A DNA stretch of 64,000 nt from Bacilli bacterium (GTDB taxonomy: Bacteria; Bacillota_I; Bacilli_A; RFN20; CAG-826), in NCBI GenBank assembly GCA_045628045.1, contig JAZQOV010000011.1, forward strand, positions 4,912 to 68,911, in the 5' to 3' direction. Positions 1,441 through 64,000 of this stretch are shown piece after piece. The notes beneath the pieces are model-generated. The model worked only from the letters and a program-made list of their open reading frames with translations, searched no databases and was not told the origin of the DNA. The position numbers and the translations under genes were made by a program. The number at the start of each line of letters is the position of its first letter. The first letter of the stretch is position 1.

Positions 1441-1441
1441 A

Positions 1442-2161: not shown

Positions 2162-2167
2162 TTAAGG

Positions 2168-13009: not shown

Positions 13010-13167
13010 CAGTTATATGACAGCCACGTATAGGCAAAACACTAATCATACGTCTTGTTACGGTACATGTGGAGACTGTCGTTTCGTTAATTTTTAAGCA
13101 AAAATAGCAAATTGTTGTTGCTCCCTGCAATTTGACTTTTATATATTGTTTCTTTACAATTCATATT

Positions 13168-17468: not shown

Positions 17469-17474
17469 ATTTTT

Positions 17475-17625
17475 ACCATAAAGAGTACGGCGAGGGACAA
17501 GCCCTATGACCCGTCAGCAACCTGCGTATAGCAAGGTGCTAAAGCTTGACTGATGGTTGTTTTTATTTTATAAGCCGTCAGTATCGATGGCTTTTAATTT
17601 CTTTGTGGTAGATAAGGAGGCTTAT
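17475..17625 (+). promoter_or_regulatory. About 150-nt structured 5' leader (attenuator/riboswitch-like) ending in an intrinsic terminator just before the RBS
   Basis: Nested stem ACGG-cg-AGGG-acaag-CCCU-auga-CCGU. CAACC...GGUUG + UUUUUAUUUU. Terminator hairpin GCCGUC-aguauc-GAUGGC + UUUU (17569-17596). RBS AAGGAGG at 17614-17620. Confidence 0.35.
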
Positions 17626-43504: not shown

Positions 43505-46321
43505 ATGAAAAAAAGTATCTCTGGAATCTTGTTAGCATCCGTTATGTCACTCGGCTTTTTAGCTGCACCTAGTACAGTTAAGGAATCAGGAAGTGCAGAG
43601 GAAGAAACAGCCATTACTTTACGCGCGAAGGCAAAAGAGGAAAGAAATTGTTTTATTTCCACTTTAGTTGAAAACATTACATCTGGGAAAACATATACCT
43701 TTAAAATTGATGGAAAGGATGTCGGTCGTTTTAGACTAACCAAATATAAAAAAGGCTGGGCAATTTCTAAGGGAACAATGTTTGTCGGCATTCAAAATAA
43801 GAGAATTGTCTACAAATTAACCCCAACTGAATGGAATTATGAAGATGGTGCATTTAGCCTCCCAGTAAAAAAAGTAAATTTTGGTTTTATCCATATTGAT
43901 ACTTCCGAACAACCAACCCAATACATTAAATCATTTAAAGTTGGTGCAAGATTAACCACCGAAAAAACTAACGTTGAAATTTATAACGTTATTCACACTG
44001 CGCACGCAATGACCGACTGGATTGATTGCGAAGATGGTGTACACCACAAGAAAGTTTGTTTAAATGAATGTGGTTACGAAGAAATTGGCGTTCATAACTT
44101 TGGTGAATTTAATAGTTCGCTTTATTGTCTTGATTGTGGCGCTATTAATCCAGGTGATCCTGAAGTTAATATTTCTGCTGCATTTAGAGAAGTAGAAACA
44201 GTCAATTATTTGAACATTCTTGTTGGAAAACCATTTAAATACACTACATATTATGCAGACGTTGATGTTTCATATAATAACGTTGGTATTTCCAAAGTTG
44301 AATTAAGAATGAATGAACAAGGCGACTTTGTCGAAGGATATAGTTGCTCACTAAATTCAAGAATCAAAACTCTTGAAGTTAGAGTTACCGATACACGCAA
44401 CAATGTTTACAACGAAGTATTCAAAAACCTCATTGTTTCATTTGATTTACAAGGTAAAGCATCAAAAATCGCTCCTATTACACATGTGGGCGAAGGCGAT
44501 AAAATCGCTGCTCCAGAAAGACCAGCTCCAACAAAAGATGAAATCTTTGCTGGCTGGTACAAAGAAGCAGAATGCGAAAATCCTTGGGATTTCGAAGTTG
44601 ATACTGTCGAAGATGATACAGTTTTATATGCTAAGTACGTTAAAGGAAATACCCTTTCAAGTGTTTTAAGCTTAAGCTATGACATCTTCCCATACGCAAC
44701 AAGCGCAACCCCAGTTCCAACAAAATCTTGGGTCAATGGCAAAGGCATTAGAGCATACATTTCAGGTGAAAACCTTGTTCTTTTAAACGGCACGAAGAAA
44801 TTAACACTTCCTCTTGCAACCGAAATGTCTATTAACGAAAACAATGAATACATCATTCAAGAAGGATCTGTTACTTGGAAATTCAACCTTCTTAGATACT
44901 TTGGATTTGATTATTTAGGATATTTTGAAATCGAAGGTTCAGAAGGCTTTGATGGTGCTTATGGTAAAACAAGTTCAAGACTTACAACAGTTATTGCAAA
45001 TGCAACAGGTATGGGTGGTTTCCCAGTTGGTGAAGCTCGTCCAGTAAATGCTTGGTCCAATGAAAAAGGAAATCGTTTATATGTAGATTCTGCTACTGGT
45101 GCAATTACAATTGAAAGCCCTAATAAAGAAGCAATTGTTCTTGAAAACAATGTTCCTGTTAATGTTTTTGATAACTATGTTATCAGAGATGAAGAAAATA
45201 ACATTAAGTTAATGCTTAACACTGAAAATGGTAAATTAACTTCTATTGAAGTTGTTACACTTGGATCATCTGAGGAAACTTCCGATTTCGGAACATTCAT
45301 TCCAGCATATGATTTAGGTAGCCTTTTAGGTACCACATTCCCAGTTACAGATATTAACAAAGCTCCACTTGATGCTTGGTTAAATGGTAATGGCGGAAAA
45401 GCATATATTGATGCAAATGGTAATTTTGCTATTGCAGATAACAACGGAATTGTTTACTCAGATTCCTTAGAAAAACCATACGTTTACAAAGATGGTTACT
45501 ATGTAAATGTCGGTGCTACTGAAGAAAATTATGTTAAAGTTGGTTATGTGGATGATGTTGTAACCTCAATTATTGTTAATGGTAGCTTTGGTAGCGGTGC
45601 AAATGGCACTTACACAGCTTTAGGAATTACTGTTTCATCTGTATTAGACACACTTAAAGTAATCTTCCCATATTTCAATGGAAATGGTGAAGTTTGGAGC
45701 AGTGCTTCTGGCGCAACAGTTTATTATGATGAAGATGCAAAAGCTATCGTTTTCAACACATTCTCACTTGCAGATACAACTGCATGTATTAGAGATGGTG
45801 AAAACTATGTTTGCACATATAAGAAAGGCTATGACAGCGCAAAGGTTACCTTTGTTATGGATAATGGAACATTAACATCAATTGTTGTTTCAGATGCTTC
45901 CCTTATGATTAGACGTGCAAATGGTGAATACGTTCCAACATCATTTATTGAAACTGTTAAAGATGTATTAGATTGCTCTAGTAGAGCATTCCCAGTTAGA
46001 TCAGCTGAAAATAATAACAATTCTTCAGCAATTCCAGAAGAAGCTTGGGAAAATGAAAATGGCATTAAGTGCTTCATTCAAAATGGCGAAGATACTCAAT
46101 CATTAGTCTTCTGTGAAGTCTTAGACGTCAAAGGCTACAAGATTGAAAAGAAAATCACTATCGACAATATTCTTGATAATATTGATCAAGCTGAAGGTGA
46201 TTATGTCTATCAATATTTCACATTTAAGATGACAAGAGGTGTCCTCTCAAGTATTGAAGTTAACTATCCACAAGGTAGCTTATATATTTCATTCAACGGT
46301 TCATATCAACCAGTTCTTTAA
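43505..46321 (+). CDS. Large secreted protein (938 aa) with signal peptide and a Flg_new-like segment
   Basis: RBS AAGGAAGG. Signal MKKSISGILLASVMSLGFLAAPSTV. ...FAGWYKEAECENPWDFEVDTVEDDTVLYAKY. The palindrome TTGTCTATTTTATAAGACAA sits just upstream, near the -10. Confidence 0.6.
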   Translation: MKKSISGILLASVMSLGFLAAPSTVKESGSAEEETAITLRAKAKEERNCFISTLVENITSGKTYTFKIDGKDVGRFRLTKYKKGWAISKGTMFVGIQNKRIVYKLTPTEWNYEDGAFSLPVKKVNFGFIHIDTSEQPTQYIKSFKVGARLTTEKTNVEIYNVIHTAHAMTDWIDCEDGVHHKKVCLNECGYEEIGVHNFGEFNSSLYCLDCGAINPGDPEVNISAAFREVETVNYLNILVGKPFKYTTYYADVDVSYNNVGISKVELRMNEQGDFVEGYSCSLNSRIKTLEVRVTDTRNNVYNEVFKNLIVSFDLQGKASKIAPITHVGEGDKIAAPERPAPTKDEIFAGWYKEAECENPWDFEVDTVEDDTVLYAKYVKGNTLSSVLSLSYDIFPYATSATPVPTKSWVNGKGIRAYISGENLVLLNGTKKLTLPLATEMSINENNEYIIQEGSVTWKFNLLRYFGFDYLGYFEIEGSEGFDGAYGKTSSRLTTVIANATGMGGFPVGEARPVNAWSNEKGNRLYVDSATGAITIESPNKEAIVLENNVPVNVFDNYVIRDEENNIKLMLNTENGKLTSIEVVTLGSSEETSDFGTFIPAYDLGSLLGTTFPVTDINKAPLDAWLNGNGGKAYIDANGNFAIADNNGIVYSDSLEKPYVYKDGYYVNVGATEENYVKVGYVDDVVTSIIVNGSFGSGANGTYTALGITVSSVLDTLKVIFPYFNGNGEVWSSASGATVYYDEDAKAIVFNTFSLADTTACIRDGENYVCTYKKGYDSAKVTFVMDNGTLTSIVVSDASLMIRRANGEYVPTSFIETVKDVLDCSSRAFPVRSAENNNNSSAIPEEAWENENGIKCFIQNGEDTQSLVFCEVLDVKGYKIEKKITIDNILDNIDQAEGDYVYQYFTFKMTRGVLSSIEVNYPQGSLYISFNGSYQPVL

Positions 46322-49868: not shown

Positions 49869-50010
49869 CTACCCCCACTTAAACATTCTATGTTTAGAAG
49901 ATGGGGGATTCCTACTCAAGAATCCTCGAGGATTCAGTGTCGATAGGCTAACCCCGTAGTTCCTACGGTTTGGTGGACTACCACTATTGTTTTTGAAGTA
50001 CTAATCTAAT
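49869..50010 (-). ncRNA. Predicted omegaRNA (reRNA) scaffold of the TnpB element (3' end of tnpB plus right end)
   Basis: Dense hairpins on the minus strand: CCCCCAUCU...AGUGGGGG, GAAUCCUCGAGGAUUC palindrome, CCGUAGGAACUACGG. Position is as expected for IS605-family omegaRNA. Confidence 0.4.
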
Positions 50011-51132
50011 TCCTTCTTTTTTGATATTAATTGCTGCATTTATATCTCTATCATGCTTTCTACCACAGATAGGACAAATCCAATCTCTATCATTTAATTC
50101 AAGACTTTTGTTGATGTAACCACAATCACTGCAAGTTTTACTAGACGGAAAGTACCTATCTACTTTTATTAATTCCTTACCTAACCATCTTAATTTGTAA
50201 TCTAGAAAATTGACAAAAGTTCCATATGCTCGATCAGATAGATTTCTGCCCAACTTCATTTTTGTATCTTTTGATTGCATTGATTTCAAATCTAAATTTT
50301 CTACAAAAACATAATCGTATTTATTTGCAATTTTTCTGGATTCTTTATGCAAAAAATCTTTCCTAGAATTTGAAATATGAAGTTGAAGTTTTCTGACTTT
50401 TTGCCAGGATTTAATGGAGTTTTTGCTACCTTTTTGGCATTTTGATGCTCTTCTGGTTAATTTTGCAAGTTTCTCCATTTCGTTTTGAAGATACTTTGGC
50501 ATATCTGCGTGATTGCCATCGCTATCGACATAAAGATGTGACAAAGAAAAATCTAATCCTATTGAGTTGTTGATATCAAGTTTTTCAAGCTTGTCGAATA
50601 ACTCGACGTTTGGATTATCTTCTTCACCAGTCAATGTCACAAAATACATGTTTGCAACTCTAGAGATGGTGACTGTGGTAAAAGAGAATGATTCAGGCAT
50701 CAAACGAGATACTACAACTTTAACTCTGCCTAATTTAGGAATTTGGATTTCGTTACCATCAAGGCGGAGGTTATTGTTGATTTTCATAGTTGTGTAGCTA
50801 TGATCATTTCTTTTGGATTTAAATTTTGGAAAAGAACCTCTATGTTCAAAGAAATTAATATACGCAGCATGTAAATGAATAATGGCTTGTTGCAAAGCAA
50901 CACTATCAACTTCTTTTAAGTATTCATACCCTTCTTTGTAATCAGGAAGTATTTTGACTAAATCAAATTTTCTCAATTTAAAAGAAGGATCTTCCGCGTG
51001 CTTTTCGACACACATTTCAAGAAAATCATTATAGACTTGGCGAACGCATCCTAAAGTTTTCTCAATTTGTTGTTTTTGAGAAGAATTAGGATAGATTCGA
51101 AATTTATAAGCTTTCTTTATTTTCTTTTCCAT
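49984..51132 (-). CDS. tnpB: TnpB (IS605 OrfB family RNA-guided nuclease)
   Basis: N-terminus KAYKFRIYPNSSQKQQIEKTLGCVRQVYNDFL. RuvC-I IGLDFSLSHLYVDSDGN. RuvC-II YVFVENLDLKSM. Zn-finger CSDCGYINKSLELNDRDWICPICGRKHDRDINAAINI. Confidence 0.9.
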   Translation of the reverse strand: MEKKIKKAYKFRIYPNSSQKQQIEKTLGCVRQVYNDFLEMCVEKHAEDPSFKLRKFDLVKILPDYKEGYEYLKEVDSVALQQAIIHLHAAYINFFEHRGSFPKFKSKRNDHSYTTMKINNNLRLDGNEIQIPKLGRVKVVVSRLMPESFSFTTVTISRVANMYFVTLTGEEDNPNVELFDKLEKLDINNSIGLDFSLSHLYVDSDGNHADMPKYLQNEMEKLAKLTRRASKCQKGSKNSIKSWQKVRKLQLHISNSRKDFLHKESRKIANKYDYVFVENLDLKSMQSKDTKMKLGRNLSDRAYGTFVNFLDYKLRWLGKELIKVDRYFPSSKTCSDCGYINKSLELNDRDWICPICGRKHDRDINAAINIKKEGIRLVLQKQ

Positions 51133-51239: not shown

Positions 51240-51887
51240 TTAGATAAATCTAAAACCTGAGCCTAGTTCTAAAAGGAATTCTTTCATGTGCGTTATAATA
51301 CCTTTTTCAATTTCTTTTTCCCTAAGGTTAAAACCTTTTTTGAAGAAATTAATTACAATCGGATCTACCATTACATCTTTTGGTTCAACAATCTGATTCC
51401 CAAGAGTGGATAATTGATTCTTTTTTGCCTCTATATTTTCTTTTGAGCCCAGTAAGATTCTTTGATAGTATCCCGATTGTATTTGTCTTTTTAAATCCCT
51501 GACAGACCATCTTTGTTTTGCACACTCTATTTCATAGAATTTTCTTTCTTCATCATTTTTTACATTTAGAAGACAAAAGTAATGCCCCCATGATAAAGTG
51601 GGAAACAGTGTTTCCCAATTTTTATATATAATATAAAAATTTAACATTGCTTTAATGTTTCTTCTTGAATACCCAGAGCCGAATTCTTTGGTTAGCTCAT
51701 TAGAAATTGAACTAATCGTGCGCTTTTTATAATCGCTTTTTCCTTTATTGGAGTCGATGTCTTTTTGAATTTGTTCCCCTATATACATATAAAGCTTAAG
51801 TAATTCAGTATTAACGTTATATATGATTTTTGCCTTCGTTGTTTCTATTGCATTTTTTAAATTTATTACTAGTTTATTTTCTTTCAT
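51240..51887 (-). pseudogene. N-terminal fragment of the YhcG/DUF1016-family nuclease gene (ends ...LGSGFRFI* at the IS junction)
   Basis: DUF1016 N-domain pattern ...TLSWGHYFCLLNVKNDEERKFYEIECAKQRWSVRDLKRQI... RBS GGAGGAGG. Confidence 0.65.
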
Positions 51888-52121: not shown

Positions 52122-53297
52122 ATGTATGACATTAATATAAAAGTTTGCGAAAATACTAAAGTTTTTATTTTTAATGGTCCTATCGACTCTAACGTTACAG
52201 ACGAAATTAAAAATTTCGTTGAATCGAATTCTTCTGGCTCTGATAGCGTTATTTTTGATATGGAAAAAGTTCCATACATGTCTAGTGCAGGCCTTAGAGT
52301 AGTGCTTAAGACTGCTAAATCAGTAAAAGAATTTGAAGTTATCAATGCTTCTGTAGAGTTATATAACATTTTCGACATGGTTGGGTTTACCCAAATGATC
52401 AAAATTAAGAAAGCCATGAGAGAAATTTCTATCGAAGGAAAAGAACTTATTGGAGAAGGTTATATGGGTAAAGTCTATAGACTTGATCCAGATACAATCA
52501 TCAAAGTATTTAAAAGAACCTCTGATACTTCTGATATCGAAAGAGAAATTTCTTTGGCAAAGAAAGCATTCATTCTTGGAGTTCCTACCGCAATACCTTT
52601 TGACATAGTCAAAGTTAAAGAAGGTGGCTACGGTTCTGTATTTGAACTTCTTAAATCATCTTCATTTAATAAATTATTTATTAATCATCCTGAGAAGGAA
52701 GATGAATACATTAAGATGTACGTGAACATCATTAAGACAATTACTTCTATTGAGGCTAAAAACCCTAGTGAGTTCCCTCGTAAGATAAATGATGCGTTAA
52801 CTTGGGTAAATGGTCTTAAGGAAGCAAAAGCCTATGATGAAGCTACACTTGCTAAACTTGAAAAATTAGTTAACACAATTCCTGAGAGTTCGCACTTAAT
52901 TCATGGTGATTGCCACATCAAAAATATTATGATGCAAGGTGATGAACCATTCCTTATTGATATGGACACTTTGGGTGTTGGGCACACCATATTTGAGTTA
53001 ACTGCAATATTCTTAACTTATATCGGATATCCTGATAAATTCCCAGGAAATGTCCAGGAATTCCTAGGTATTTCCGATGAAACCGCTAAGAAATTATTCT
53101 ATTCAACAATTGATTCTTTATACGCAGATAAATCAAAAGAAGAAAGAAACACAATTGTTGAGAAATGTGCTTTGTTTGGTTATATGTGGTTAACATACAA
53201 GACATTATTATTTGAACCAGAAAATAAAGTAAGACTTGATAACGCAAAAGAGAAAGTTATGAGTCTTATTGATAAATACGACACACTTAATTTTTAA
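52122..53297 (+). CDS. STAS domain fused to a protein-kinase-like / aminoglycoside-phosphotransferase-like domain
   Basis: N-terminal STAS (MSSAGLRVVLKTAKSV...IFDMVGF). Gly-rich loop GEGYMGKVYR. Lys IIKVFK. Catalytic HGDCHIKNIMM. IDMDTLG. Confidence 0.65.
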   Translation: MYDINIKVCENTKVFIFNGPIDSNVTDEIKNFVESNSSGSDSVIFDMEKVPYMSSAGLRVVLKTAKSVKEFEVINASVELYNIFDMVGFTQMIKIKKAMREISIEGKELIGEGYMGKVYRLDPDTIIKVFKRTSDTSDIEREISLAKKAFILGVPTAIPFDIVKVKEGGYGSVFELLKSSSFNKLFINHPEKEDEYIKMYVNIIKTITSIEAKNPSEFPRKINDALTWVNGLKEAKAYDEATLAKLEKLVNTIPESSHLIHGDCHIKNIMMQGDEPFLIDMDTLGVGHTIFELTAIFLTYIGYPDKFPGNVQEFLGISDETAKKLFYSTIDSLYADKSKEERNTIVEKCALFGYMWLTYKTLLFEPENKVRLDNAKEKVMSLIDKYDTLNF

Positions 53298-53315
53298 TGA
53301 AAGAAGGACACGAAA

Positions 53316-53612
53316 ATGGAAATAAACAAACTTGTAGAGAAAGACACTCTCACACTTGCTATTGAAGGAAGACTTGATACTTTAACATCTCCAACCCTTC
53401 AAGAAACAATTAATTCATCACTTGAAGGCATTGTTCATTTAGTAATTGATCTAAAGAAAGTTGTCTATATTTCGAGTGCCGGATTAAGAGTAATTTTAAG
53501 TGCACAAAAATTAATGAATACGAAAGGTGATATGGTTGTAAAAAATTGTTCAGCTGAAGTCCTTGAAGTTTTTGAAATGACAGGATTTACTGAGATTTTA
53601 ACGATAAAATAA
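53316..53612 (+). CDS. STAS-domain anti-sigma-factor antagonist (SpoIIAA/RsbV-like)
   Basis: 98 aa. ISSAGLRVILSAQKLM...VFEMTGF. RBS GAAGGA. Confidence 0.8.
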   Translation: MEINKLVEKDTLTLAIEGRLDTLTSPTLQETINSSLEGIVHLVIDLKKVVYISSAGLRVILSAQKLMNTKGDMVVKNCSAEVLEVFEMTGFTEILTIK

Positions 53613-53613
53613 T

Positions 53614-56484
53614 ATGGAATTCCTGGATATTTTTAAATTTATAATAGCTGCAATCATTCCAATTCTTTTAAGCGTTGGCTGTATTTATCTTGAGAAAACA
53701 AGAAGATTTTCTAAGTTAAACAAATACGTTAAAGCTTTAATATTTGGAGTTATTTTTGGCATCAGTTCAATTAGTGGAACTTTACTTGGTTTAAAACTAC
53801 CAAATGGCGCAATCATCAACGTGCGTGATGCCTCTCCTATTATATGTGGTCTTCTTTTTGGTGGACCATCAGGAATTTTGGCTGGCTTAATTGGCGGCGG
53901 CTTTAGAGCACTTACTCCTCTTTGGGAACCATCGACAGCTTACACAGTTGTTGCATGTTCTATTTCAACCGCAATGGCTGGTGTATTTACTGTGTTTGTT
54001 AGACATTTCATCTTTGATGATAAAAAAGGTACTTGGTACTATGGATTCTTCCTTGGCGTATTAGTTGAAGACTTCCATATGATGATGTCTGTGCTTACAC
54101 ACACAGAAGATATTGTTAAGGTTTATAACTCAGTTATAAAAGTATGTACAGTTCCAATGGTATTAGCAAATTCATTAGCGGTAATGATTGCAATTATTAT
54201 TGTTAATTTAATAAATCACGAGAAAATATTTGAAAAAGAAGTCAGAACTCATATTTCTACAAAGGTTCAGGTTTCTTTGATTCTTTCTCTTGTTGTTTCT
54301 TATGTTGCAACTGCGTTATTTACGAATATGTCTGTTAATAAAGTTGTTCAAACAAATATTAAAGGTCAATGTGAAAACGCTATAAGCGATGTTATTAATA
54401 ATGTTGATGACACAATCAACAATGTTATGAGTGACAAACTTGATGAAGTCGCAATAAAACTTCTTGATGAAGTAAAACCATTAGAAAAAGATAGGCTTTT
54501 ACGTAAAGAAGCATTAGTAAGTATTCTTAATGATTTCTCTGGTGAGATTTCTGAAATCAATATTGTTGGCACTGATGGTTTTGTTCATTATTCCACAGAT
54601 CAATACGATTTTATGGAAGACGGAAGTGGACCATTTAACATGGAAATTGGTGACCAATCAAGAGAATTTAATGTCTTACTTAAAGAAGGCGAAACAAACT
54701 ATTTTATCCAGGAATTCCGCGAGATTTCTGCGTATGATGGCGGAAAATCAATGAAATATGCTGGCTATAGATTTGATGCTGAAGACATTGAATCAGACTT
54801 CTGTTATTTCCAAATTGGTTTAGATGCTGCAAGGTATCACGAACTACTTCAAGACTATGTTGATGAATGTGCTAAATTTAGACACATTGGTGAAGAAGGA
54901 TTCGTTGTAGTTAGCGATGAAAATGGTGCAATTGTTTCAACAATCGTTGATTGTCCATTTACTGAAACAATTGATGTAAATAAGTTCCTAAACGATGGTT
55001 ACGATAAATATTACACTTACTCTAAATTTGTTGAAGGTTACTACATTGTTGCTTTTGCAGGCGCTGAAGAAAGTGATTTAGCATCCGTAATTTCATTCAC
55101 TGCAATTTCTCTTGCTGAAGTTTTTGTTTATTTGCTTTTATATTGCGTTTTATATATAGCAGTTAAACGTAGAATCGTTGATAAAATTAAAACTATAGGC
55201 TTAAGCCTAAATGAAATTTCTTCAGGAAACTTAGATGTTGTTGTTAATCAAAGAGACAGTTATGAATTTGATTCATTAAGTAACGACATTAATAAAACTG
55301 TTGGAACTCTTAAAGAGTTCATTGCGAAAGAAGCTAATAAGAATGCTGAAGAGTTAGCATTTGCTAAAAACATTCAATATTCTGTTCTTCCAACCGCTTT
55401 CCCAATGAATGATAGATTTGAAATTTATGCTTCTATGTCAACCGCCAAGACTGTTGGTGGTGACTTCTATGATTTCTATTTTATAGATAGAGAGCATGTA
55501 TTAATTGAAATCGCTGATGTTAGTGGAAAAGGTATTCCTGCCGCTATGTTCATGATGAGAGCAAAATCTGTTCTTAAATCACTTATAGAATCAGGTATTG
55601 GAATTGAAAATGCCTTTATTGAAGCAAATAGAAAACTTTGTCAAGGTAATGATACTCAAACATTTATTACGGTTTGGGGTGGAATTATCGATTTAACTAC
55701 AGGACATGTTGACTTTGTCAACGCTGGTCATAATCCTCCAATTATTTGTAGAGATGGCAAATTTGAGTACTTACATAGTAAACCAGGCTTTGTTTTAGCA
55801 GGTTTAGAAGGATTTAAATACGTTAAGCAAAGCTTTGACATTAAGCCAGGTGATATGATTTATCTTTATACTGATGGTGTTACTGAAGCTAATAACGAAA
55901 AACATGAACTTTATGGAGAAGAAAGACTTCTTAAAGCAATTGGAGATAAAACATATACTTCTAAATCTATTTGTGAAACTGTCTCAAAGAGTTTGAAGAA
56001 GTTTGTGAATGATGCAGAACAATCTGATGATATTACAATGCTCGCATTTAAATTCTATGATGTTGAGCTCGCTAATATTAAAGTTGTGGATGCAGACTTA
56101 AAGAATTTACCAGAAATCATAGATTATATCGATGATTTGCTTGATAAAAATAACGCCACATTATCTGCAAAATCACAAATCGATGTAGCAGTGGATGAGA
56201 TATTCTCAAATATCGCATTCTACGCTTATCCAGAAGGCCAAGTTGGTAAGGTCAAAGTTTCAGTCATTATGTCTAAAGACAATGAAGAAATGACCATTAT
56301 CTTTGAAGATAAAGGAAAAACATATAACCCACTTGAGAAAGAAGATCCAGATACTTCACTATCTCTAGAAGAGAAGTCTATTGGTGGACTAGGTATATTT
56401 ATTGTTAAAAAGACAATGGATTCATTAGAATACGATAACGTTAATGGTCATAACGTATTAACCCTCAGAAAGAAGATTCATTAG
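53614..56484 (+). CDS. Membrane sensor: multi-TM + extracytoplasmic domain + HAMP + SpoIIE/PP2C phosphatase + C-terminal RsbW-like HATPase_c (anti-sigma kinase) domain
   Basis: N-terminal 5-6 TM helices. HAMP-like VDKIKTIGLSLNEISSGNLDVVV. PP2C GGDFYDFYFID...IADVSGKGIPAAMFMM...DGVTEA...DDIT. HATPase VDEIFSNIAFYAY...SIGGLGIFIVKKTMDSLEY. Confidence 0.75.
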   Translation: MEFLDIFKFIIAAIIPILLSVGCIYLEKTRRFSKLNKYVKALIFGVIFGISSISGTLLGLKLPNGAIINVRDASPIICGLLFGGPSGILAGLIGGGFRALTPLWEPSTAYTVVACSISTAMAGVFTVFVRHFIFDDKKGTWYYGFFLGVLVEDFHMMMSVLTHTEDIVKVYNSVIKVCTVPMVLANSLAVMIAIIIVNLINHEKIFEKEVRTHISTKVQVSLILSLVVSYVATALFTNMSVNKVVQTNIKGQCENAISDVINNVDDTINNVMSDKLDEVAIKLLDEVKPLEKDRLLRKEALVSILNDFSGEISEINIVGTDGFVHYSTDQYDFMEDGSGPFNMEIGDQSREFNVLLKEGETNYFIQEFREISAYDGGKSMKYAGYRFDAEDIESDFCYFQIGLDAARYHELLQDYVDECAKFRHIGEEGFVVVSDENGAIVSTIVDCPFTETIDVNKFLNDGYDKYYTYSKFVEGYYIVAFAGAEESDLASVISFTAISLAEVFVYLLLYCVLYIAVKRRIVDKIKTIGLSLNEISSGNLDVVVNQRDSYEFDSLSNDINKTVGTLKEFIAKEANKNAEELAFAKNIQYSVLPTAFPMNDRFEIYASMSTAKTVGGDFYDFYFIDREHVLIEIADVSGKGIPAAMFMMRAKSVLKSLIESGIGIENAFIEANRKLCQGNDTQTFITVWGGIIDLTTGHVDFVNAGHNPPIICRDGKFEYLHSKPGFVLAGLEGFKYVKQSFDIKPGDMIYLYTDGVTEANNEKHELYGEERLLKAIGDKTYTSKSICETVSKSLKKFVNDAEQSDDITMLAFKFYDVELANIKVVDADLKNLPEIIDYIDDLLDKNNATLSAKSQIDVAVDEIFSNIAFYAYPEGQVGKVKVSVIMSKDNEEMTIIFEDKGKTYNPLEKEDPDTSLSLEEKSIGGLGIFIVKKTMDSLEYDNVNGHNVLTLRKKIH

Positions 56485-56493
56485 GTAGAAATT

Positions 56494-57324
56494 ATGTCAA
56501 TTGCAGATAAGATTTTTGTAGAAAATATGAAAGACATTCTTAAGAATGGTTTTTCAGATGAAAAGTTAGAAGTTAGACCTCATTGGGAAGATGGAACTCC
56601 TGCTCACACGATTAAAAAGTTCTGTATTGTGAATAGATACAATCTTCAAGAGGAGCTTCCAATTCTCACAATAAGAAAAACCGCTTTTAAGTCATGTCTT
56701 GATGAACTTCTTTGGATTTGGCAAAAGAAATCAAACAATATTCATGATTTAAAATCACATATTTGGGATTCTTGGGCTGATGAAAATGGTTCGATAGGCA
56801 AAGCCTATGGTTATCAACTTGGAGTCAAACATCATTATCCTGAAGGAGACATGGATCAAGTTGATAGAGTTCTTTATGATTTAAAACATAATCCTCAATC
56901 AAGAAGAATCTTAACAAATATCTATAATTTCCAAGATCTTCATGAAATGAATCTTTATCCATGCGCTTACTCAATGACATTTAATGTCACTGGTGACACA
57001 TTAAATGGAATTTTAAATCAACGTTCTAACGATATGTTAACAGCGAATAACTGGAATGTTTTGCAATATTCATTATTGTTAATAATGTTCGCGCAAGTTT
57101 CAGGTTTAAAACCAGGAACTCTAGTTCATGTAATCGCTGATGCTCATATTTATGACCGCCATGTTGAGCTTGTTAAAAAGGTAATTGAAAAACCTCAACA
57201 TAAAGCTCCTAAATTATGGGTTAATCCAGAGATCAAAAACTTCTATGATTTTAAAGTTGAAGACTTCAAACTTATTGATTATGAATATGAAACTTTAGAA
57301 GAAAAAATACCGGTGGCAATTTAG
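56494..57324 (+). CDS. thyA: Thymidylate synthase (ThyA type)
   Basis: 276 aa. ...LPILTIRKTAFKSCLDELLWIW... Active-site Cys context LYPCAYSMTFNV. ...QRSNDMLTANNWNV... Confidence 0.85.
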   Translation: MSIADKIFVENMKDILKNGFSDEKLEVRPHWEDGTPAHTIKKFCIVNRYNLQEELPILTIRKTAFKSCLDELLWIWQKKSNNIHDLKSHIWDSWADENGSIGKAYGYQLGVKHHYPEGDMDQVDRVLYDLKHNPQSRRILTNIYNFQDLHEMNLYPCAYSMTFNVTGDTLNGILNQRSNDMLTANNWNVLQYSLLLIMFAQVSGLKPGTLVHVIADAHIYDRHVELVKKVIEKPQHKAPKLWVNPEIKNFYDFKVEDFKLIDYEYETLEEKIPVAI

Positions 57325-57325
57325 T

Positions 57326-57820
57326 ATGATTATTTCAATTTTAAGTGTTGACAAAAACTATGGAATTGGGAAAAATAATTCCCTTCTTTTCCATCTAAAA
57401 AAAGACATGGAATTCTTCAGAAAGACAACTGAAGGTCATATGGTTTTTATGGGTGAAAATACTTTACTTTCTTTCCCTGGAAGTAAGCCACTTAAAAATA
57501 GAATCAATGTAGTTCTTAGCAAAGACAAAACTCACAATTACGAAGGTTGTAAGAATGTTCACAATTTCCGAAAATTCACGAGAATTCTCAGGAAAAATGG
57601 CAGAAAACACGATGTTTTTGTAATTGGTGGAGCGTCTATTTATATGCAAACACTTCCTATAGTGGATATGGTATTATTAACCAAAGTTGATGCTGATGGA
57701 CACGCTGATGTCTTCTTTGATAATTTAGATAAAAATCCATCTTTTGAATGTGTTGATCAAGGCACACCAATTATGGATGGAGATTACAAAATTAGATTCA
57801 CAACTTATATTCGAAAATAA
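57326..57820 (+). CDS. folA: Dihydrofolate reductase
   Basis: 164 aa. MIISILSVDKNYGIGKNNSLLFHLKKDMEFFRKTT...MGENT...FVIGGASIY. 1-nt gap after thyA. Confidence 0.8.
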   Translation: MIISILSVDKNYGIGKNNSLLFHLKKDMEFFRKTTEGHMVFMGENTLLSFPGSKPLKNRINVVLSKDKTHNYEGCKNVHNFRKFTRILRKNGRKHDVFVIGGASIYMQTLPIVDMVLLTKVDADGHADVFFDNLDKNPSFECVDQGTPIMDGDYKIRFTTYIRK

Positions 57821-57895
57821 TCTTTAGTATTGTATTGCAATTTAACGAGAATTATTTGTAATATTGTTATCAGGCGAGATGGGTCTGACAAAAGG

Positions 57896-57925
57896 AAAGA
57901 GATTGGCTGCTACCAATCTCTTTTT
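57896..57925 (+). terminator. Rho-independent terminator (in repeat unit 1)
   Basis: AAAGAGATTGG-cugcua-CCAATCTCTTT followed by TT. Confidence 0.8.
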
Positions 57926-57977
57926 CATACTTTGGAATACAGACTGTAGAATTAATCATGAATTTTGCAAAAATGCA

Positions 57978-58005
57978 TTGAAATAATTATGAATTTAGAT
58001 ATAAT
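57978..58005 (+). promoter_or_regulatory. Consensus promoter TTGAAA-16 nt-TATAAT inside repeat unit 2
   Basis: TTGAAA 57978-57983 and TATAAT 58000-58005. Confidence 0.5.
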
Positions 58006-58011
58006 AATAGT

Positions 58012-58066
58012 ATCAGGCGTGGGATCTGACAAAAGGAAAGAGATTGGTTGCATCCAATCTCTTTTT
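58012..58066 (+). ncRNA. Candidate about 55-nt small RNA (repeat unit 2), running from the promoter to the terminator AAAGAGATTGG-uugcau-CCAATCTCTTTTT
   Basis: A consensus promoter is immediately upstream and a perfect terminator hairpin sits at 58037-58066. A homologous unit lies at 57867-57925. Confidence 0.3.
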
Positions 58067-58446
58067 CATAGTTTGGAATACAGGCGTGGGTTTCTAACCC
58101 TTAATCATTGATTTTAATAATCAGTAAAATAAGAGCTAGAATAAGAAGGTACTCCACTAAGGACATCCTCCCTTCCCAAACGCCTGAATGCAAACTCCGA
58201 CGTTCGAAGACCGCCATCATATTCCTTTCTATGAAGTCAAATGAATTATTGACCCCACACTAACTAATTAGAGAAAAATAAGCAAAACTGCTAAAAAATA
58301 TTTTTAATATATTAATATATTACAATTTAGCACTTTTTCTGAGACTCAAAAAAGTACGGAAAAAAACTTGCTTTTATACTTAAAAAGGAATAATTTAACA
58401 TAAATGTTTAATTACATTGCTTTACTCTAGAAAAGAGGTAGAAGTT

Positions 58447-61400
58447 ATGAAGAAAAGTAGATTTTATACTTTATTAGCTCTATCAAGTATCCTTACTTTA
58501 GGAACTGCTTTTGCAGCCACCTCAATTAATGATGAAACTAATAGAAACCAAGGCATTAACGAATTAAATGCAGAGTCTTTGTCAGAGGATAAACTTTATG
58601 TTGCTCCTGCTGCAGTTTCTCCATATACATACACTACTTCTCCAACTAATGAACCGTGGTATAAAAATAGCCACGAATACCATTCTACAGCAACTGGATC
58701 AGATGGGTTTGATTATCAAAGAAACCAAAAAACTACAATGTATGATTTCATGAATGTTTCTGAAACATGGAACTCATATCGTGGTGAAAATGTTAAAGTA
58801 GCCGTTATTGACACAGGTTGTTATACATCACATGAAGACTTTAACGGCACAAATATAAAAACAATCTCTAAAAACATGGTGTCAGGAACAACTGGATTAT
58901 CAGCTGTAAATGATGCTCATGGACATGGAACAACTTCTGCAGCAACAATTGCGGCCGCTGTTAATGGTAAAGGCGGCACCGGAATTGCACCAAATGTAGA
59001 ATTAATAGTTTTGAAATGCGTTGATGCTAACAATGCTTTTAGTAATACTGCAATTAACAATGCTCTTCAATATTGTATTGATAATGATGTTGATGTCATT
59101 AACATGTCAATTCAAGGTTACAACGTTTATTCAAACTTTTCCTCAACATATGTTGAAGATTTTGGAAATTACACGGTAAACACAACTTCATCTGGCATAA
59201 TGACTCCTACACAATTCTCTACAAAAATTAAAGCTTGTCACGATGCTGGTATTACTTTAGTTGCCGCTGCCGGTAACTATAATACTTCCAAAGAATCATA
59301 TCCTGCTGCCAATGATTATGTCATTGCTGTTGGCTCCACAGGCTTAACGAGTGCAACATCAAAAGCTGGTTATTCCAATTATGGAGATTGGCTTGATATT
59401 AGTGCTCCTGGTTACGTTTATACTCCATCGCTATCCGGAACCGACCAATATTCTGTTACAAATGGCACAAGCTTTTCTGCTCCTTTGGTTACTGGTGCAA
59501 TAGCACTATATAAATCAAAATATCCTGATGCAACTCCTGATCAAATTGAAGAAGCTCTAAAAGCGACTGCTCAACCAATTAATTGGCAAGGTGGCGCTGG
59601 GGCAGTTAATGTTGGAGCTTTCTTGGAATATGCTCCTAAGTCACCAGTTAGCAGTTTAGCTCTTCCTGATGAAACAAAGACATTATCTGTTGGAGAAACA
59701 TATCAACTAATTCCAACAATTTTACCGTCTGATGCTTCGCAAGAAGTTACTTATGGTAACACAGACAATTCTGTTGTATCAATTTCAAATACTGGATTAG
59801 TCACTGCATTAAAAGCAGGGACATCAACAGTCACTGTGTATAGTAAAAACACATCCATCTATGACACAGTTGTAATTACTGTTAATGCTGTTACTGGCGA
59901 GAAAAAAACAGTATCAAAAGAATGGACTTTAACCAGTTCTAATACTGATTGGACAGCATCAGGAAACGAAACATATTTTAGCCAGCCTTATGGTTACAAA
60001 GCAAATGGTGGAACTCTCATTACAACAAATTCAATAGAAGACTTTACTAAAACAAACAAAACAGAGATTAAAGTTAGTTTTAAGTGTCTCCAAAATGGTG
60101 GTTCAAGTTCAAAAATCACTATTTACCTTTACGATAGCAGTGGAAACGTATTAGGTTCAGAAGTTTTTACTCCTGTAAATAAAAATTCAGCTTCCAATAC
60201 CGAATATTGCACAGCAACATTCACATCAAATTTAACTAATGCAGCCAAAATAGGAATGAAGGTCACTACGTTTGGAAAGAACATTTTGGTTAATGGTGCA
60301 AAGTATGAATTGACTTATCTAGATTCAGGAGCAACCCCGTCAGTTAAGACGCTTTCTAGCATTTCTGTTTCTAATCAAAAAACCACATTTACTGTTGGTG
60401 AAACATGGACATTTGGCGGAACAGTAACTGCTACTTACTCTGACAATTCAACTGCAGATGTTACTTCTAATGTCACATTCAGCGGTAACACAACATCATC
60501 CGCCGGTCAAAAAACGGTAACTGTTTCTTATAAAGAAGGCAGTGTTGAAAAAACAACAACCTATTCAATTACTGTTTCAGCACCGGTTGTTACAAATTAC
60601 ACTGTCACATTTAACTCAAATGGTGGTTCGGGCACAATGACTAGCAAAACCACTACTGGTTCTACATATGTTGTTCCTGAATCTAACTTTACAAAAGAAG
60701 GCTATACATTTGACAAATGGGCTCTTAATAGTACATCTGGTAGTAAATACGCAGCCGGAACAACAATCAATAATATCTCCTCTAATATCACGTTATATGC
60801 TACATGGATTCAAGATTTAACACCTCAACCAGGTGATTATTACAAGGATGTCGACACAAGCTCTCAAGAAAATCTAATTTCAACATTGCATTCAACCATT
60901 TCACAGGGAACTGTAGATGTTGGTTATGATGGCCTTTGGGATGCTTATGAAAAAACAGATTTACGTCCTGGGACAAATTATTATTGGGATATGTATTCCA
61001 ATTATAATTTTACAAAATCTTCGCCAAATAGCAATTATAAAAAAGAAGGTGACGCAGTAAATAGAGAGCACACTGTTCCACAATCTTGGTTTAATGAAAA
61101 ATCTCCAATGAAAGCCGACTTATTTCATGTTTATCCAACTGACGGCTATGTAAACAATAGAAGATCTAATTATCCTCATGGTGATGTTGGTAATGCAACA
61201 TATACTTCTGAAAACGGAAGTAAATTGGGAACAGCTAGCTTTCCAGGAATTTCAGGCACCGTTTTTGAAGTAATTGATGAATATAAGGGCGATTTTGCCC
61301 GCAGCTATTTTTATATGGCTACCAGATACTATAATACGTTTAATGATTGGGATTCAAACGTGATATTCCAAAAAACACCGCCGTATATGACTTCTGCTTT

Positions 61401-64000
61401 CATCAATCAATATTATGCATGGCATATAGCTGATCCGGTTTCAGAAAAGGAAGTAAACCGTAATGAAGCAGTTTATGGAATTCAGAAAAATAGAAATCCG
61501 TACATTGATCATCCTGAATGGGTTGCATATGCTTTTAAAGGCATTGCTCCAATTGTGGGTGAAAAAACACTTAACTCAATCACTTTAAGTGGTTCACAAA
61601 AAACAGAATTTACTGTTGGTGAAACTTTCTCATATACTGGATTAGTTGTCACTGCTCATTACTCAGACAACACAACAGCAATAGTAACACCAACAAGTGT
61701 TTCTACACCAGACATGAATTCTGCTGGTGAGAAAACAGTTACTGTTACCTATACAGATTCAACAGGAACAAAGACTGATACTTATACTATTACAGTAAAA
61801 AGCAGTGGAGTTACACCAGAGCCAGAAAAACACACAACTGCATTAACACTAGATAAAACAACCGCAACAATAAAAGTAGGAGAAAATCTAACATTAACAG
61901 CAACTAAGACGCCATCTGATTCAGTTGATGGAATTAGTTGGTCCACGGACAATTCTTCTATTGCAACAGTTTCAAATGGTGTAGTAACAGGCGTTTCTCC
62001 AGGAACTGCAACTATCACAGCTACATCTAATGGCATCCCTGCCACTTGTTTAGTTGAAGTTAAATCACAAAGCACTAGTAGTACTGTCACAGCATCAATT
62101 GATTTTACAAATAGTAATGATTCTTACAAAGACAGTGTTGGAAATACATGGACAGGAGCCGGAGGCAATAAAGGAAATTATTATCGACTTGATAGTGCTG
62201 ATTCTATAACAAGCTCATCAATTTCTATTGATACTTCAAAAACAATAGATCTTTCTCTATACATTGGTTCATATGGTAGTGGCACCAAAACGCTAAGTGC
62301 TTATGCAATTAATAGTTCTGGAACAGTTGTTACAAACCAAGTTTCAATGTCACCAACATCTACGAGTTCAAATAAATTTACAGGGACTCTAACTTTTAAT
62401 AACACCTCAGATTCAAATATTAAAATTGTTTTTAAAACAACTTCTGGTTCAATTCGTTTTTACAAAGGAGATATTACTTATACTCCGTTGTCAATTGGAC
62501 CACAAGTAACAAGCATTTCATTAAGTGAATCAGAATTAACTTTTGATTTATATGATAATTATTCGCCTCAAACACTTACTGCTAGTATTGAAGCAGATGT
62601 CGGTGCCGACAAAACAATACTTTGGACATCTTCTGATGAAACTGTCGCAACAGTTGTTGATGGTGTTGTTACTCCTCACTCCAAAGGAACTGCAACAATT
62701 ACCGCAACATCTAAAGCAAATTCAGAGATAAAAGCTACTTGTAAAGTTGAAGTTACTGATTCTAGTCCGATACCGGTCACCGGAATAACATTAAATGAAA
62801 CTTCAGCAACACTTATAATTGGTTCAACCTTGACATTAGAAGCAACAATCACACCTACTAATGCTACAAATAAAAATATTAGTTGGTCTTCTAATAATGA
62901 AAATATTGCTACTGTTTCAGATGGCCTTGTTACAAGCAAGGCTATTGGTACAGCTATTATAACAGTTACGACAGATGACGGCGGTTTTACTGCAACTTGT
63001 ACAATAACTGTCAGTGCCGCACCTGTTATCACATATCAACTTGAAGCAGATGAAACAGAAGTTCCATTTATGAGCGGAACAAATCATATTGCTTCGGTTG
63101 GAGTCAAATTGTATCAATACACAAATGGTGTTAAAGGAAACCAGGTTAGTTCAGGAAGCTCTAATGTTGATACTTCTTCATTAGGCAACAAAACAATTTC
63201 TTATATTTATCAAGATATTACATACGAAACGATAGTTAAAGTAACAAATTATGGTGCTGATGTTGGCTTGCCAACCCAATTAGATCCAGTAACTAATAAC
63301 ATAACGTCAAGTTTTACAGTCACTAGCAGTACTACTAGCTCCTGGAGTATGCCAACTGGATGGACTGTTACAAGTAGTGGAACAACTGGTTACGAAGCCA
63401 ATCGAGGAATTCAATTACAAAAGAACGCAAAAATATCGTTCGTTCTTCCTTCATATAAGAATATTACTTCCATTTCTTTAGATGTTGCAAGAAGCAGTAA
63501 TGGATCAGGTTCTTTTACGGTAACCGTTGATGACGAATTAGTTAAAACAATTTCTAGTTTTAATACTACAAAAACTACACAAACGATTAAATTTGATGAG
63601 GCAAAATCAGGTGTTATTAAAATTGATGGCAGCGCTTCTGCTAGCTCATTATATATCAAAGCAATTTCTATAAATTATCAAGAAATTGTAGAAGGTCAAT
63701 TAATTGAACACAATGCCACACCAAATCAACAAGCGATAGCCTGGTCTGATTATTTTATTAAGTTAACTGGTGGCGGAGCATTTGATGGACCATGTAAAGA
63801 ATCAACTCCAGAAGCAAGAAGAGCTGCACTTCAAGAAATTTGGGGTGAAGTCTCTGCAGAATATGGTTACATGGTAAATGGATCTAAAGATGCATTCTGT
63901 GATTCATCTGCCACTGGTTCTATTTCAGAGGCAATGCAACATTATAGTTACATTGTTGATACATATGGATTAGATAATTTCGTTAAAGATGGATCAGGTA
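58447..64000 (+). CDS. Giant secreted/surface multidomain protein, 3' end beyond the window (over 1850 aa in-window). It combines a subtilisin-like S8 peptidase, Big_2 and Flg_new repeats, an Endonuclease I (EndA/NucM-type) nuclease domain and further Big_2 repeats.
   Basis: RBS AAGAGG. Signal MKKSRFYTLLALSSILTLGTAFA. S8 triad contexts VAVIDTG, HGHGTTSA, GTSFSAPLVTGA. Flg_new unit YTVTFNSNGGSGTMTS...EGYTFDKWAL. Endonuclease_1 motifs REHTVPQSWF, DLFHVYPTDGYVNNRRSNYP, FARSYFYMAT. Not in the ORF track because there is no in-window stop. Confidence 0.75.
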   Translation, partial: MKKSRFYTLLALSSILTLGTAFAATSINDETNRNQGINELNAESLSEDKLYVAPAAVSPYTYTTSPTNEPWYKNSHEYHSTATGSDGFDYQRNQKTTMYDFMNVSETWNSYRGENVKVAVIDTGCYTSHEDFNGTNIKTISKNMVSGTTGLSAVNDAHGHGTTSAATIAAAVNGKGGTGIAPNVELIVLKCVDANNAFSNTAINNALQYCIDNDVDVINMSIQGYNVYSNFSSTYVEDFGNYTVNTTSSGIMTPTQFSTKIKACHDAGITLVAAAGNYNTSKESYPAANDYVIAVGSTGLTSATSKAGYSNYGDWLDISAPGYVYTPSLSGTDQYSVTNGTSFSAPLVTGAIALYKSKYPDATPDQIEEALKATAQPINWQGGAGAVNVGAFLEYAPKSPVSSLALPDETKTLSVGETYQLIPTILPSDASQEVTYGNTDNSVVSISNTGLVTALKAGTSTVTVYSKNTSIYDTVVITVNAVTGEKKTVSKEWTLTSSNTDWTASGNETYFSQPYGYKANGGTLITTNSIEDFTKTNKTEIKVSFKCLQNGGSSSKITIYLYDSSGNVLGSEVFTPVNKNSASNTEYCTATFTSNLTNAAKIGMKVTTFGKNILVNGAKYELTYLDSGATPSVKTLSSISVSNQKTTFTVGETWTFGGTVTATYSDNSTADVTSNVTFSGNTTSSAGQKTVTVSYKEGSVEKTTTYSITVSAPVVTNYTVTFNSNGGSGTMTSKTTTGSTYVVPESNFTKEGYTFDKWALNSTSGSKYAAGTTINNISSNITLYATWIQDLTPQPGDYYKDVDTSSQENLISTLHSTISQGTVDVGYDGLWDAYEKTDLRPGTNYYWDMYSNYNFTKSSPNSNYKKEGDAVNREHTVPQSWFNEKSPMKADLFHVYPTDGYVNNRRSNYPHGDVGNATYTSENGSKLGTASFPGISGTVFEVIDEYKGDFARSYFYMATRYYNTFNDWDSNVIFQKTPPYMTSAFINQYYAWHIADPVSEKEVNRNEAVYGIQKNRNPYIDHPEWVAYAFKGIAPIVGEKTLNSITLSGSQKTEFTVGETFSYTGLVVTAHYSDNTTAIVTPTSVSTPDMNSAGEKTVTVTYTDSTGTKTDTYTITVKSSGVTPEPEKHTTALTLDKTTATIKVGENLTLTATKTPSDSVDGISWSTDNSSIATVSNGVVTGVSPGTATITATSNGIPATCLVEVKSQSTSSTVTASIDFTNSNDSYKDSVGNTWTGAGGNKGNYYRLDSADSITSSSISIDTSKTIDLSLYIGSYGSGTKTLSAYAINSSGTVVTNQVSMSPTSTSSNKFTGTLTFNNTSDSNIKIVFKTTSGSIRFYKGDITYTPLSIGPQVTSISLSESELTFDLYDNYSPQTLTASIEADVGADKTILWTSSDETVATVVDGVVTPHSKGTATITATSKANSEIKATCKVEVTDSSPIPVTGITLNETSATLIIGSTLTLEATITPTNATNKNISWSSNNENIATVSDGLVTSKAIGTAIITVTTDDGGFTATCTITVSAAPVITYQLEADETEVPFMSGTNHIASVGVKLYQYTNGVKGNQVSSGSSNVDTSSLGNKTISYIYQDITYETIVKVTNYGADVGLPTQLDPVTNNITSSFTVTSSTTSSWSMPTGWTVTSSGTTGYEANRGIQLQKNAKISFVLPSYKNITSISLDVARSSNGSGSFTVTVDDELVKTISSFNTTKTTQTIKFDEAKSGVIKIDGSASASSLYIKAISINYQEIVEGQLIEHNATPNQQAIAWSDYFIKLTGGGAFDGPCKESTPEARRAALQEIWGEVSAEYGYMVNGSKDAFCDSSATGSISEAMQHYSYIVDTYGLDNFVKDGSG

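Follow-up and report, generated by a model that had tools for sequence, protein, structure and literature searches.

The window analysed here, a 64,000-nucleotide stretch of Bacilli bacterium DNA (contig JAZQOV010000011.1, positions 4,912 to 68,911), carries at its right-hand end (58447-64000, forward strand) a giant gene whose product joins a subtilisin-type (S8) protease and an Endonuclease I nuclease on a single anchored chain. With a rough probability of 0.6 we take this protein for a membrane-tethered bifunctional exo-hydrolase that digests extracellular protein and nucleic acid for uptake and is docked by modules resembling carbohydrate-binding modules (CBMs). In this reading a Sec signal would export the chain, and a C-terminal transmembrane (TM) helix with a cytoplasmic Lys/Arg tail would keep it in the membrane. 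Outside the cell, some 1,830 residues would form a projecting string of β-sandwich modules, with an active subtilisin-type protease at the distal tip and an active, cysteine-free nuclease of the Endonuclease-I type (EndA/NucM, His-Me finger) placed mid-stalk, and at least two CBM-like jelly-roll modules would probably tether the protein to a polymeric substrate. Protein and DNA or RNA would thus be cut near the cell and the resulting peptides and nucleotides imported, a nutritional role being the most likely one. The clade-restricted family of surface proteins to which it belongs would diversify by exchange of whole modules, the nuclease cassette included.

The gene occupies 1851 codons of the window with no stop, a run whose chance occurrence at about 33 % GC, with some 7 % stop codons, is by our own arithmetic about 1e-60; the competing open reading frames (ORFs) that overlap this region, on both strands, are 61-118 residues long. 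The start ATG is preceded by a GAGG ribosome-binding site. A protein-database search returned the full-length protein at 100 % identity (P0001, 1899 residues, encoded on a 137-kb NCBI contig), and therefore the gene ends 48 codons beyond the window. An initial annotation, made from the DNA letters alone, had described a single uninterrupted ORF of more than 5.5 kb, with a signal peptide and continuing past the window, and each of these points holds. The N-terminus (MKKSRFYTLLALSSILTLGTAFA, followed by ATS) reads as a standard Sec signal, in which MKKSR precedes a hydrophobic stretch and an AxA cleavage site (cleavage after AFA and before A, residues 1-23), and the N-termini of the homologues are comparable. 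The C-terminus of P0001, outside the window (...VTVVTAIIVMVGAMSVGAYFFYKKRKSDVE), consists of a transmembrane helix and the basic tail KKRKSDVE (approximately residues 1866-1899). An anchor thus exists and is not of the LPXTG type: neither LPXTG nor any conserved motif precedes the C-terminal hydrophobic segment here or in 25 relatives. The same ending closes two other large proteins of the window (13132-15582 and 34100-38488) and appears to be the general mode by which this organism anchors its surface proteins. The topology would be that of a type-I membrane protein with the entire ectodomain outside the cell.

The Pfam scan of P0001 identified one Peptidase_S8, one Endonuclease_1, four Big_2, two Big_3 and one Flg_new domain, and confirmed both enzymes far above their cutoffs. 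Multiple Big_2 modules had been announced and were found; the Listeria-Bacteroides (Flg_new) repeat, announced as several, is a single copy at residues 718-785. Pfam leaves about 40 % of the chain unassigned (residues 24-112, 483-628, 1207-1345, 1523-1625, 1626-1752 and 1753-1855). The modules follow one another on the forward strand of the window in this order:

58447-58515 (+): Sec signal peptide, residues 1-23, from the sequence
58516-58782 (+): N-terminal region, residues 24-112, no Pfam match, possible propeptide
58783-59574 (+): Peptidase_S8, residues 113-376, Pfam E 2.2e-42
58810-58812, 58924-58926, 59275-59277 and 59470-59472 (+): codons of the S8 catalytic residues D122, H160, N277 and S342, respectively
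59647-59853 (+): Big_2 domain 1, residues 401-469, Pfam E 9.5e-14 for the isolated segment
59893-60330 (+): module U1, residues 483-628, CBM-like β-jelly-roll in the predicted fold, probably a recently exchanged cassette
60373-60576 (+): Big_3 domain 1, residues 643-710, Pfam E 4.7e-07
60598-60801 (+): Flg_new, a single Listeria-Bacteroides repeat, residues 718-785, Pfam E 3.5e-14
60835-61536 (+): Endonuclease_1 (His-Me finger), residues 797-1030, Pfam E 8e-63, with H875 at 61069-61071
61597-61797 (+): Big_3 domain 2, residues 1051-1117, Pfam
61837-62031 (+): Big_2 domain 2, residues 1131-1195, Pfam E 1.7e-15
62065-62481 (+): module U2, residues 1207-1345, no Pfam match, all-β by composition
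62506-63006 (+): Big_2 domains 3 and 4, residues 1354-1431 and 1443-1520, Pfam
63013-63321 (+): module X, residues 1523-1625, no Pfam match, conserved in 41 homologues by profile iteration
63322-63702 (+): module U3, residues 1626-1752, CBM-like β-jelly-roll in the predicted fold
63703-64000 (+), cut by the window end: Ct, membrane-proximal helical domain, residues 1753-1855, four helices in the AlphaFold2 (AF2) model

The protease domain matches Peptidase_S8 (PF00082) at 145.8 bits, against a cutoff of 21.8, and aligns to subtilisins DY, Carlsberg and BPN' with E values of about 1e-28 to 1e-30. In these alignments D122, H160, N277 and S342, found in the contexts VIDTG, GHGT, AAGN and GTSFSAP, fall on subtilisin residues D32, H64, N155 and S221. 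All four are invariant in the 109 proteins that carry this S8 head in our family sample (the best 120 matches and their cluster members), and the complete catalytic triad that had been proposed is thereby borne out. The preceding residues 24-112 gave no Pfam match to an I9-type propeptide even at E <= 0.1; they are kept, at 44-53 % identity, solely in relatives with the same S8 subtype and possibly constitute a propeptide. Two narrower assignments of the protease were discarded. The score for the type VII secretion mycosin model TIGR03921 (143.5 bits against an equivalog cutoff of 278.75) reflects generic S8 similarity only, and that for QhpE also lies below its cutoff.

The nuclease domain covers positions 4-235 of the 235 of the Endonuclease_1 model (PF04231; residues 809-1024, 212.8 bits against a cutoff of 25), in agreement with the claim of a complete domain. 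Its motifs are N872-R-E874-H875, N903 within VNN-RSN, GDFAR and NRNPYID. Over its C-terminal half the domain can be aligned to Endonuclease I and Vvn of Vibrio, and N903 is placed on the Asn of their EVNGDRSN segment; H875 and N903 are probably the equivalents of His80 and Asn127 of Vvn. All 35 aligned copies retain the motifs N-[RK]-E-H, xN..R[SG]N, GD.AR and NRN[PA]F[IV]D, although these copies are only 23-76 % identical to the present domain, which indicates purifying selection on catalysis. Judged from these residues, both catalytic domains look active. The nuclease contains no cysteine. Disulfides typify the proteobacterial subgroup and not the whole family, so that the domain belongs to PF04231 and falls outside that subgroup. 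Since RNase Bsn of Bacillus is a member of the same family, RNA is a possible substrate besides DNA.

Among the unnamed modules, U1 and U3 are modeled as CBM-like β-jelly-rolls, similar to solved CBMs at 19 % identity or less. Neither matches a Pfam CBM family, U1 giving a weak sub-threshold match to PPC only, so that with such low identity the term CBM-like describes the fold and not membership of a CBM family. Profile iteration found U2 in 12 homologues and Ct in 47, one neighbouring nuclease giant included. No solved counterpart of Ct was found in two fold searches, both of which were dominated by a β domain. U1, U2 and U3 could not be joined into one repeat family, as BLAST self-comparison, iterated hidden Markov models and hhalign gave no significant link (the best, between U1 and U2, reached 45 % probability), and a likeness seen by eye to the C-terminal module of a Bacteroidales nuclease found no support in profile comparison. 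Three to five of these recurrent modules (U1, U2, U3, X and Ct) could become annotated families.

At least 28 of the 109 sampled proteins with the S8 head also possess the nuclease. In all 28 of these fusions, which measure 1377-2137 residues, the protease precedes the nuclease; for the 81 members with S8 alone the median is 1309 residues. The transmembrane helix and basic tail terminate 26 of the 28 fusions and 79 of the 81 S8-only relatives. A separate search with the nuclease domain, exhaustive over 1.84 billion representatives at E <= 1e-3, returned 8807 relatives, mostly proteins of 300-1500 residues in which the nuclease is N-terminal. S8 is present in only five of the 150 closest (P0001, P0007, P0025, P0249 and P0251), and these all end in the helix and basic tail of the clade, so that the fusion is, as far as sampled, confined to one lineage. 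Its carriers are uncultured low-GC Bacilli of a single clade (33-36 % GC across the loci); one relative is labelled 'Bacilli bacterium', and the relatives come from metagenome assemblies, with one record labelled gut.metagenome. The initial annotation had called a protease-nuclease fusion unusual. The combination does appear undescribed, but it is not a one-off, being shared by at least 28 proteins. In the searchable literature neither S8 with Endonuclease_1 nor a secreted protease-nuclease fusion was found. A survey of His-Me finger nucleases lists fn3, LTD and Big_2 as the only partners of Endonuclease_1 and mentions coupling to a protease only for another nuclease family, Endonuclea_NS_2 (PMC5714182). 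What appears to be new is the union of S8 and Endonuclease_1 on one anchored chain; the catalytic families, the Ig-like stalks and the transmembrane anchoring were already known.

A table of identities to relatives, computed module by module, revealed a mosaic. The S8 head is 67-71 % identical to those of P0006, P0008, P0012, P0022 and P0018 and 41-50 % to those of P0003, P0007, P0019 and P0002. U1 is 96 % identical to its counterpart in P0003 and was undetected in other family members. The first Big_3 domain is 77 % identical to those of P0002 and P0019 and the Flg_new repeat 86 % and 74 %, respectively, U3 and Ct are 66-68 % identical to P0002, and the nuclease is 76 % identical to P0007, 67 % to P0025 and 24 % to both P0002 and P0019. 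The contrast is also seen at the DNA level around U1: window positions 59899-60329 are 93 % identical to positions 2253-2685 of a related locus (L007), while identity between these two genomes is 76 % in thyA-folA and the gene parts flanking U1 have no nucleotide match there. The exchanged piece ends at module boundaries. The nuclease is 49 % identical to Bacteroidales enzymes (L001 and L002) and 23 % to that of the syntenic gene in L003. An origin of the nuclease from the adjacent nuclease-only giant of the related loci was rejected, since the identity to that protein is 28-32 %, against 49 % to the Bacteroidales nucleases.

The closest relatives of U1 outside the clade, at 61-64 % identity, come from contigs with 39-45 % GC and have, by eye, Bacteroidota-like signal peptides. 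At one such locus (L011, 3796-4473) the U1-like modules (61-64 %) are N-terminal in short or truncated proteins, and an adjoining surface protein of 1,238 residues (2-3715, minus strand) begins with a similar-looking jelly-roll-type module; this hints at a family of U1-type modules shared with Bacteroidota-like organisms. We read the mosaic as cassette-level recombination inside a family of surface proteins, with a possible input across phyla. It offers a concrete case of such recombination in surface enzymes, with nuclease subtypes that differ between syntenic genes, and it bears on the interpretation of metagenomic 'giant genes' and of strain-level antigenic variation.

The nutritional reading agrees with what is known of comparable enzymes. 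In lactic acid bacteria, cell-envelope S8 proteinases serve amino-acid nutrition. Membrane nucleases supply the nucleotide precursors on which mycoplasmas and other bacteria with reduced genomes depend (PMC12115388, PMC6895004), and in Flavobacterium phosphate depletion induces Endonuclease_1 enzymes (PMC8115612). In the related loci the fusion gene has a conserved companion that encodes a second giant surface nuclease, which suggests that extracellular nucleic-acid degradation has been a repeated investment in the clade. Linkage to thyA-folA, taken alone, argues only weakly that nucleotides are scavenged in this genome. Feeding is hard to separate by sequence from the remodelling of an extracellular matrix, with which it overlaps.

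The linkage concerns the following features, directly upstream of the gene:

56494-57324 (+): thyA, thymidylate synthase, Pfam Thymidylat_synt E 2e-85, 92-93 % identical to thyA of the related loci
57326-57820 (+): folA, dihydrofolate reductase, Pfam DHFR_1 E 5e-39, 71-78 % identical to folA of the related loci
57821-58261 (no strand): spacer of about 440 nucleotides with hairpin units, absent from L003, the closest syntenic locus
58262-58446 (+): conserved leader, probably with the gene's own promoter region, and GAGG ribosome-binding site, from DNA similarity to L003

The succession thyA, folA and fusion gene recurs in six related loci (L003-L008), and in L003, L004/L005, L006, L007 and L008 it continues with a minus-strand membrane gene, an Endonuclease_1 giant and smpB, while the genes upstream of thyA vary. 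Such an order would fit an operon in which deoxyuridine and deoxycytidine products of the released nucleotides feed thymidylate synthesis, a refinement rather than a contradiction of the nutritional reading. In L004 and L006 only 4 nucleotides separate folA from the fusion gene and the ribosome-binding site of the latter lies within folA, which makes co-transcription very likely there. In L009, where an S8 protein without nuclease is encoded approximately 4 kb upstream, thyA-folA still directly precede the minus-strand gene and a nuclease-only giant. Nevertheless, all these loci are close kin (ThyA 92-97 %, FolA 71-94 % and SmpB 74-90 % identical), two genomes with 86 % identical ThyA carry unrelated genes after folA, and the gaps widen to 86-133 nucleotides in L007 and L008 and to 626 nucleotides in the window, where the spacer holds two terminator-like hairpins and the gene has a conserved leader of its own. 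Moreover, ThyA makes dTMP de novo from dUMP, and the direct salvage of thymidine would need a thymidine kinase. We consider the operon a less likely possibility. The suggestion that the position beside thyA and the dihydrofolate reductase gene points to scavenging stands in so far as the adjacency recurs and is not due to chance within the clade; as evidence of shared function in this genome it is weak, given linkage among close kin only, the genomes with 86 % identical ThyA, the arrangement in L009 and the long spacer. The linkage is a clade-level feature that may be functional in some lineages.

The last 185 nucleotides of the spacer are conserved (window positions 58262-58532 are 85 % identical in DNA to positions 7821-8086 of L003, compared with 79.5 % for thyA-folA), which suggests that they are the gene's own leader. 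The remainder (57821-58261) is an insertion of about 440 nucleotides relative to L003 and contains two copies of a unit of about 80 nucleotides, where 0.01 would be expected. Each copy comprises a hairpin of 11-12 bp followed by a T-run (at 57896-57923 and 58037-58064), and a promoter scan placed a strong promoter-like site, TTGAAA-16-TATAAT, between them (57978-58005). No further copy of the unit occurs in the window or in the compared loci. A riboswitch or small RNA in the spacer was considered and gave no Rfam match above noise. The insertion may be what is left of a mobile element, or it may act as a tandem terminator or encode a small RNA.

Further observations concern the genes of the related loci. 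The minus-strand gene (L003 13559-14515, L004 13250-14230, L006 12628-13632, L007 6591-7670, L008 6682-7602 and L009 17228-18223) always lies between the fusion gene, or folA, and the second nuclease giant. Its products, of 306-359 residues and 31-53 % identity, combine a soluble domain at the N-terminus with a lysine-rich linker and some four TM helices and belong to no Pfam family; in the present genome the gene presumably lies just beyond the window end. The second giant (L003 14614-18843, L004 14334-18353, L006 13747-17388, L007 7771-11967 and L008 7703-12430) encodes 1213-1575 residues, with an N-terminal Endonuclease_1 domain of another subtype (28-32 % identical to that of the fusion) and Big_2/Big_3 modules, and smpB stands directly downstream of it in every related locus. 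At L006 (6666-7496), where folA and the fusion gene are undamaged, thyA is broken into ORFs of 99 and 137 residues; a frameshift or pseudogene would explain this, as would an assembly error.

The protein might instead serve colonisation, degrading the scaffold of extracellular DNA and protein in biofilm or mucus, or neutrophil extracellular traps (NETs), for access or escape. Protease and nuclease together are what such matrices would call for, the CBM-like modules could dock on glycan-rich ones, and surface nucleases of mycoplasmas do degrade NETs (PMC9740415). There is no evidence of a pathogen, however; the relatives are metagenomic, the domain scans of the protein showed no toxin or host-binding domain, and this role overlaps with feeding, as noted above. 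We consider this role unlikely, and for the digestion of NETs, which the initial annotation had raised, nothing in the relatives' metagenome assemblies or in the features seen speaks in favour, no trait of host interaction being among them.

Still less probable is a weapon or feeding tool directed at neighbouring microbes, antagonistic or epibiotic, that would strike their surface proteins and the nucleic acids they release. The very fast evolution and the module swaps resemble an arms race, the long stalk would reach neighbours, and CBM-like modules could bind foreign capsules or walls. Yet pressure from phages or from host immunity would be just as likely to diversify surface proteins, and no gene for immunity, a toxin-delivery domain or a secretion system lies among the window neighbours or in the related loci. 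It is very improbable, too, that the nuclease acts on incoming DNA, as a barrier or in transformation processing, with the protease incidental. Periplasmic members of Endonuclease_1 do reduce transformation rates, and a barrier has been proposed for Vvn and EndoI (PMC5714182); here, however, the nuclease sits mid-way on a stalk of some 1,800 residues, well away from the membrane, the neighbourhood contains no competence genes, and the invariant protease triad argues that both activities have been selected. An assembly artefact joining the repeated Ig-like modules of different strains, which a metagenome-assembled source with repeats and a mosaic identity profile might bring to mind, is hardly credible, because the exchanged U1 piece is 93 % and not 100 % identical and ends at module boundaries, the reading frame is intact over all junctions, and no fewer than 28 proteins, assembled independently from many samples, have the same domain order.

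Elsewhere in the window, a TnpB/IS605 OrfB-type gene (49984-51132, minus strand; HTH_OrfB_IS605, OrfB_IS605 and a Cas12f1-like TNB domain) adjoins a truncated gene for a DUF1016/YhcG PD-(D/E)XK nuclease (51240-51887, minus strand), the pair forming a mobile-element scar approximately 7 kb upstream of the fusion gene. Directly upstream of thyA lies a partner-switching module (52122-56484, plus strand) composed of a STAS-APH kinase fusion, a STAS protein and a 5TMR-LYT-SpoIIE phosphatase-HATPase_c_2 protein, in the same arrangement as in L003. An S-adenosylmethionine (SAM; S-box) riboswitch was found at 17473-17559 on the plus strand (51.8 bits against a gathering score of 44.4), and two Fic/DOC-domain proteins (11827-12711, minus strand, and 18156-19214, plus strand) are encoded no more than 7 kb apart. 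The window is rich in further large proteins predicted at the surface (4842-7997, 13132-15582, 23891-27946, 34100-38488, 38557-42129 and 43505-46321), which include lipoproteins with Big_2 or with four Flg_new repeats, a DUF285 protein, and proteins of 1,462 and 1,190 residues without any Pfam match.

If the activities are real, the protein would show how uncultured gut bacteria with small genomes may harvest peptides and nucleotides, and, as a natural modular scaffold that tethers several enzymes to the membrane, it would fall outside the paradigms of cellulosome and gingipain. A bolder and rather doubtful extension would see in it a 'digestive mast' of uncultured, probably reduced-genome gut Bacilli, with protease, nuclease and glycan docking on one anchored stalk, co-transcribed with thyA-folA in some lineages and accompanied by a second surface nuclease; the catalytic and binding cassettes of the mast would be exchanged among species, and at times with Bacteroidota, to retarget nutrient capture.

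Among known systems, the nuclease is nearest in kind to the Endonuclease I family (E. coli EndA, Vibrio Vvn/Dns and Bacillus RNase Bsn; PF04231, His-Me finger group 9), with which it shares the full model match, the Asn metal-ligand motif and the E-H dyad. The predicted extracellular location is also shared, and the family had been seen in association with Big_2 before (PMC5714182). Family members of solved structure are small, single-domain, periplasmic or secreted proteins that contain disulfides, and these bonds are described as activating EndoI and Vvn after export (PMC5714182). The present domain, by contrast, is free of cysteine and stands mid-chain, together with a protease, in an anchored protein of 1,899 residues.

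The nearest relatives outside the clade, at 49 % identity, are the multidomain nucleases of Bacteroidota (an 816-residue protein of L001, and Flavobacterium EndA1/EndA2 with fn3, LTD and Endonuclease_1), which likewise pair the nuclease with β-sandwich modules; the induction of the Flavobacterium enzymes under phosphate depletion indicates a nutritional role (PMC8115612). They differ in carrying the nuclease at the N-terminus and no protease, and the L001 protein is devoid of the helix and basic tail of the clade.

In overall plan the protein resembles lactococcal PrtP and streptococcal ScpA/PrtS, surface-attached proteinases with an N-terminal subtilisin, a long β-sandwich stalk and a helical pre-anchor segment, of which PrtP is nutritional. 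Proteinases of that type carry a PA-domain insert and an LPXTG/sortase anchor; the present protein has neither PA domain nor LPXTG, is anchored by a TM helix and bears the inserted nuclease and the CBM-like modules. The membrane nucleases of mycoplasmas (MnuA, SNase-like lipoproteins and Mm19) share the proposed role, the supply of nucleotide precursors at the surface (PMC12115388, PMC6895004, PMC4807054). This is an analogy only, as the folds are unrelated and the mycoplasma enzymes are lipoproteins without a protease and not type-I TM proteins.

A further comparison is offered by the siblings within the clade, the S8-only giants of about 1,300 residues and the nuclease-only giants of 1,213-1,575 residues, the latter adjoining the fusion gene. 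They share with it the S8 head, the Ig-like modules, Ct and the TM/basic-tail anchor, but each kind has one catalytic activity only. The fusion looks like a recombinant of the two, and in L009 both occur as separate neighbouring genes.

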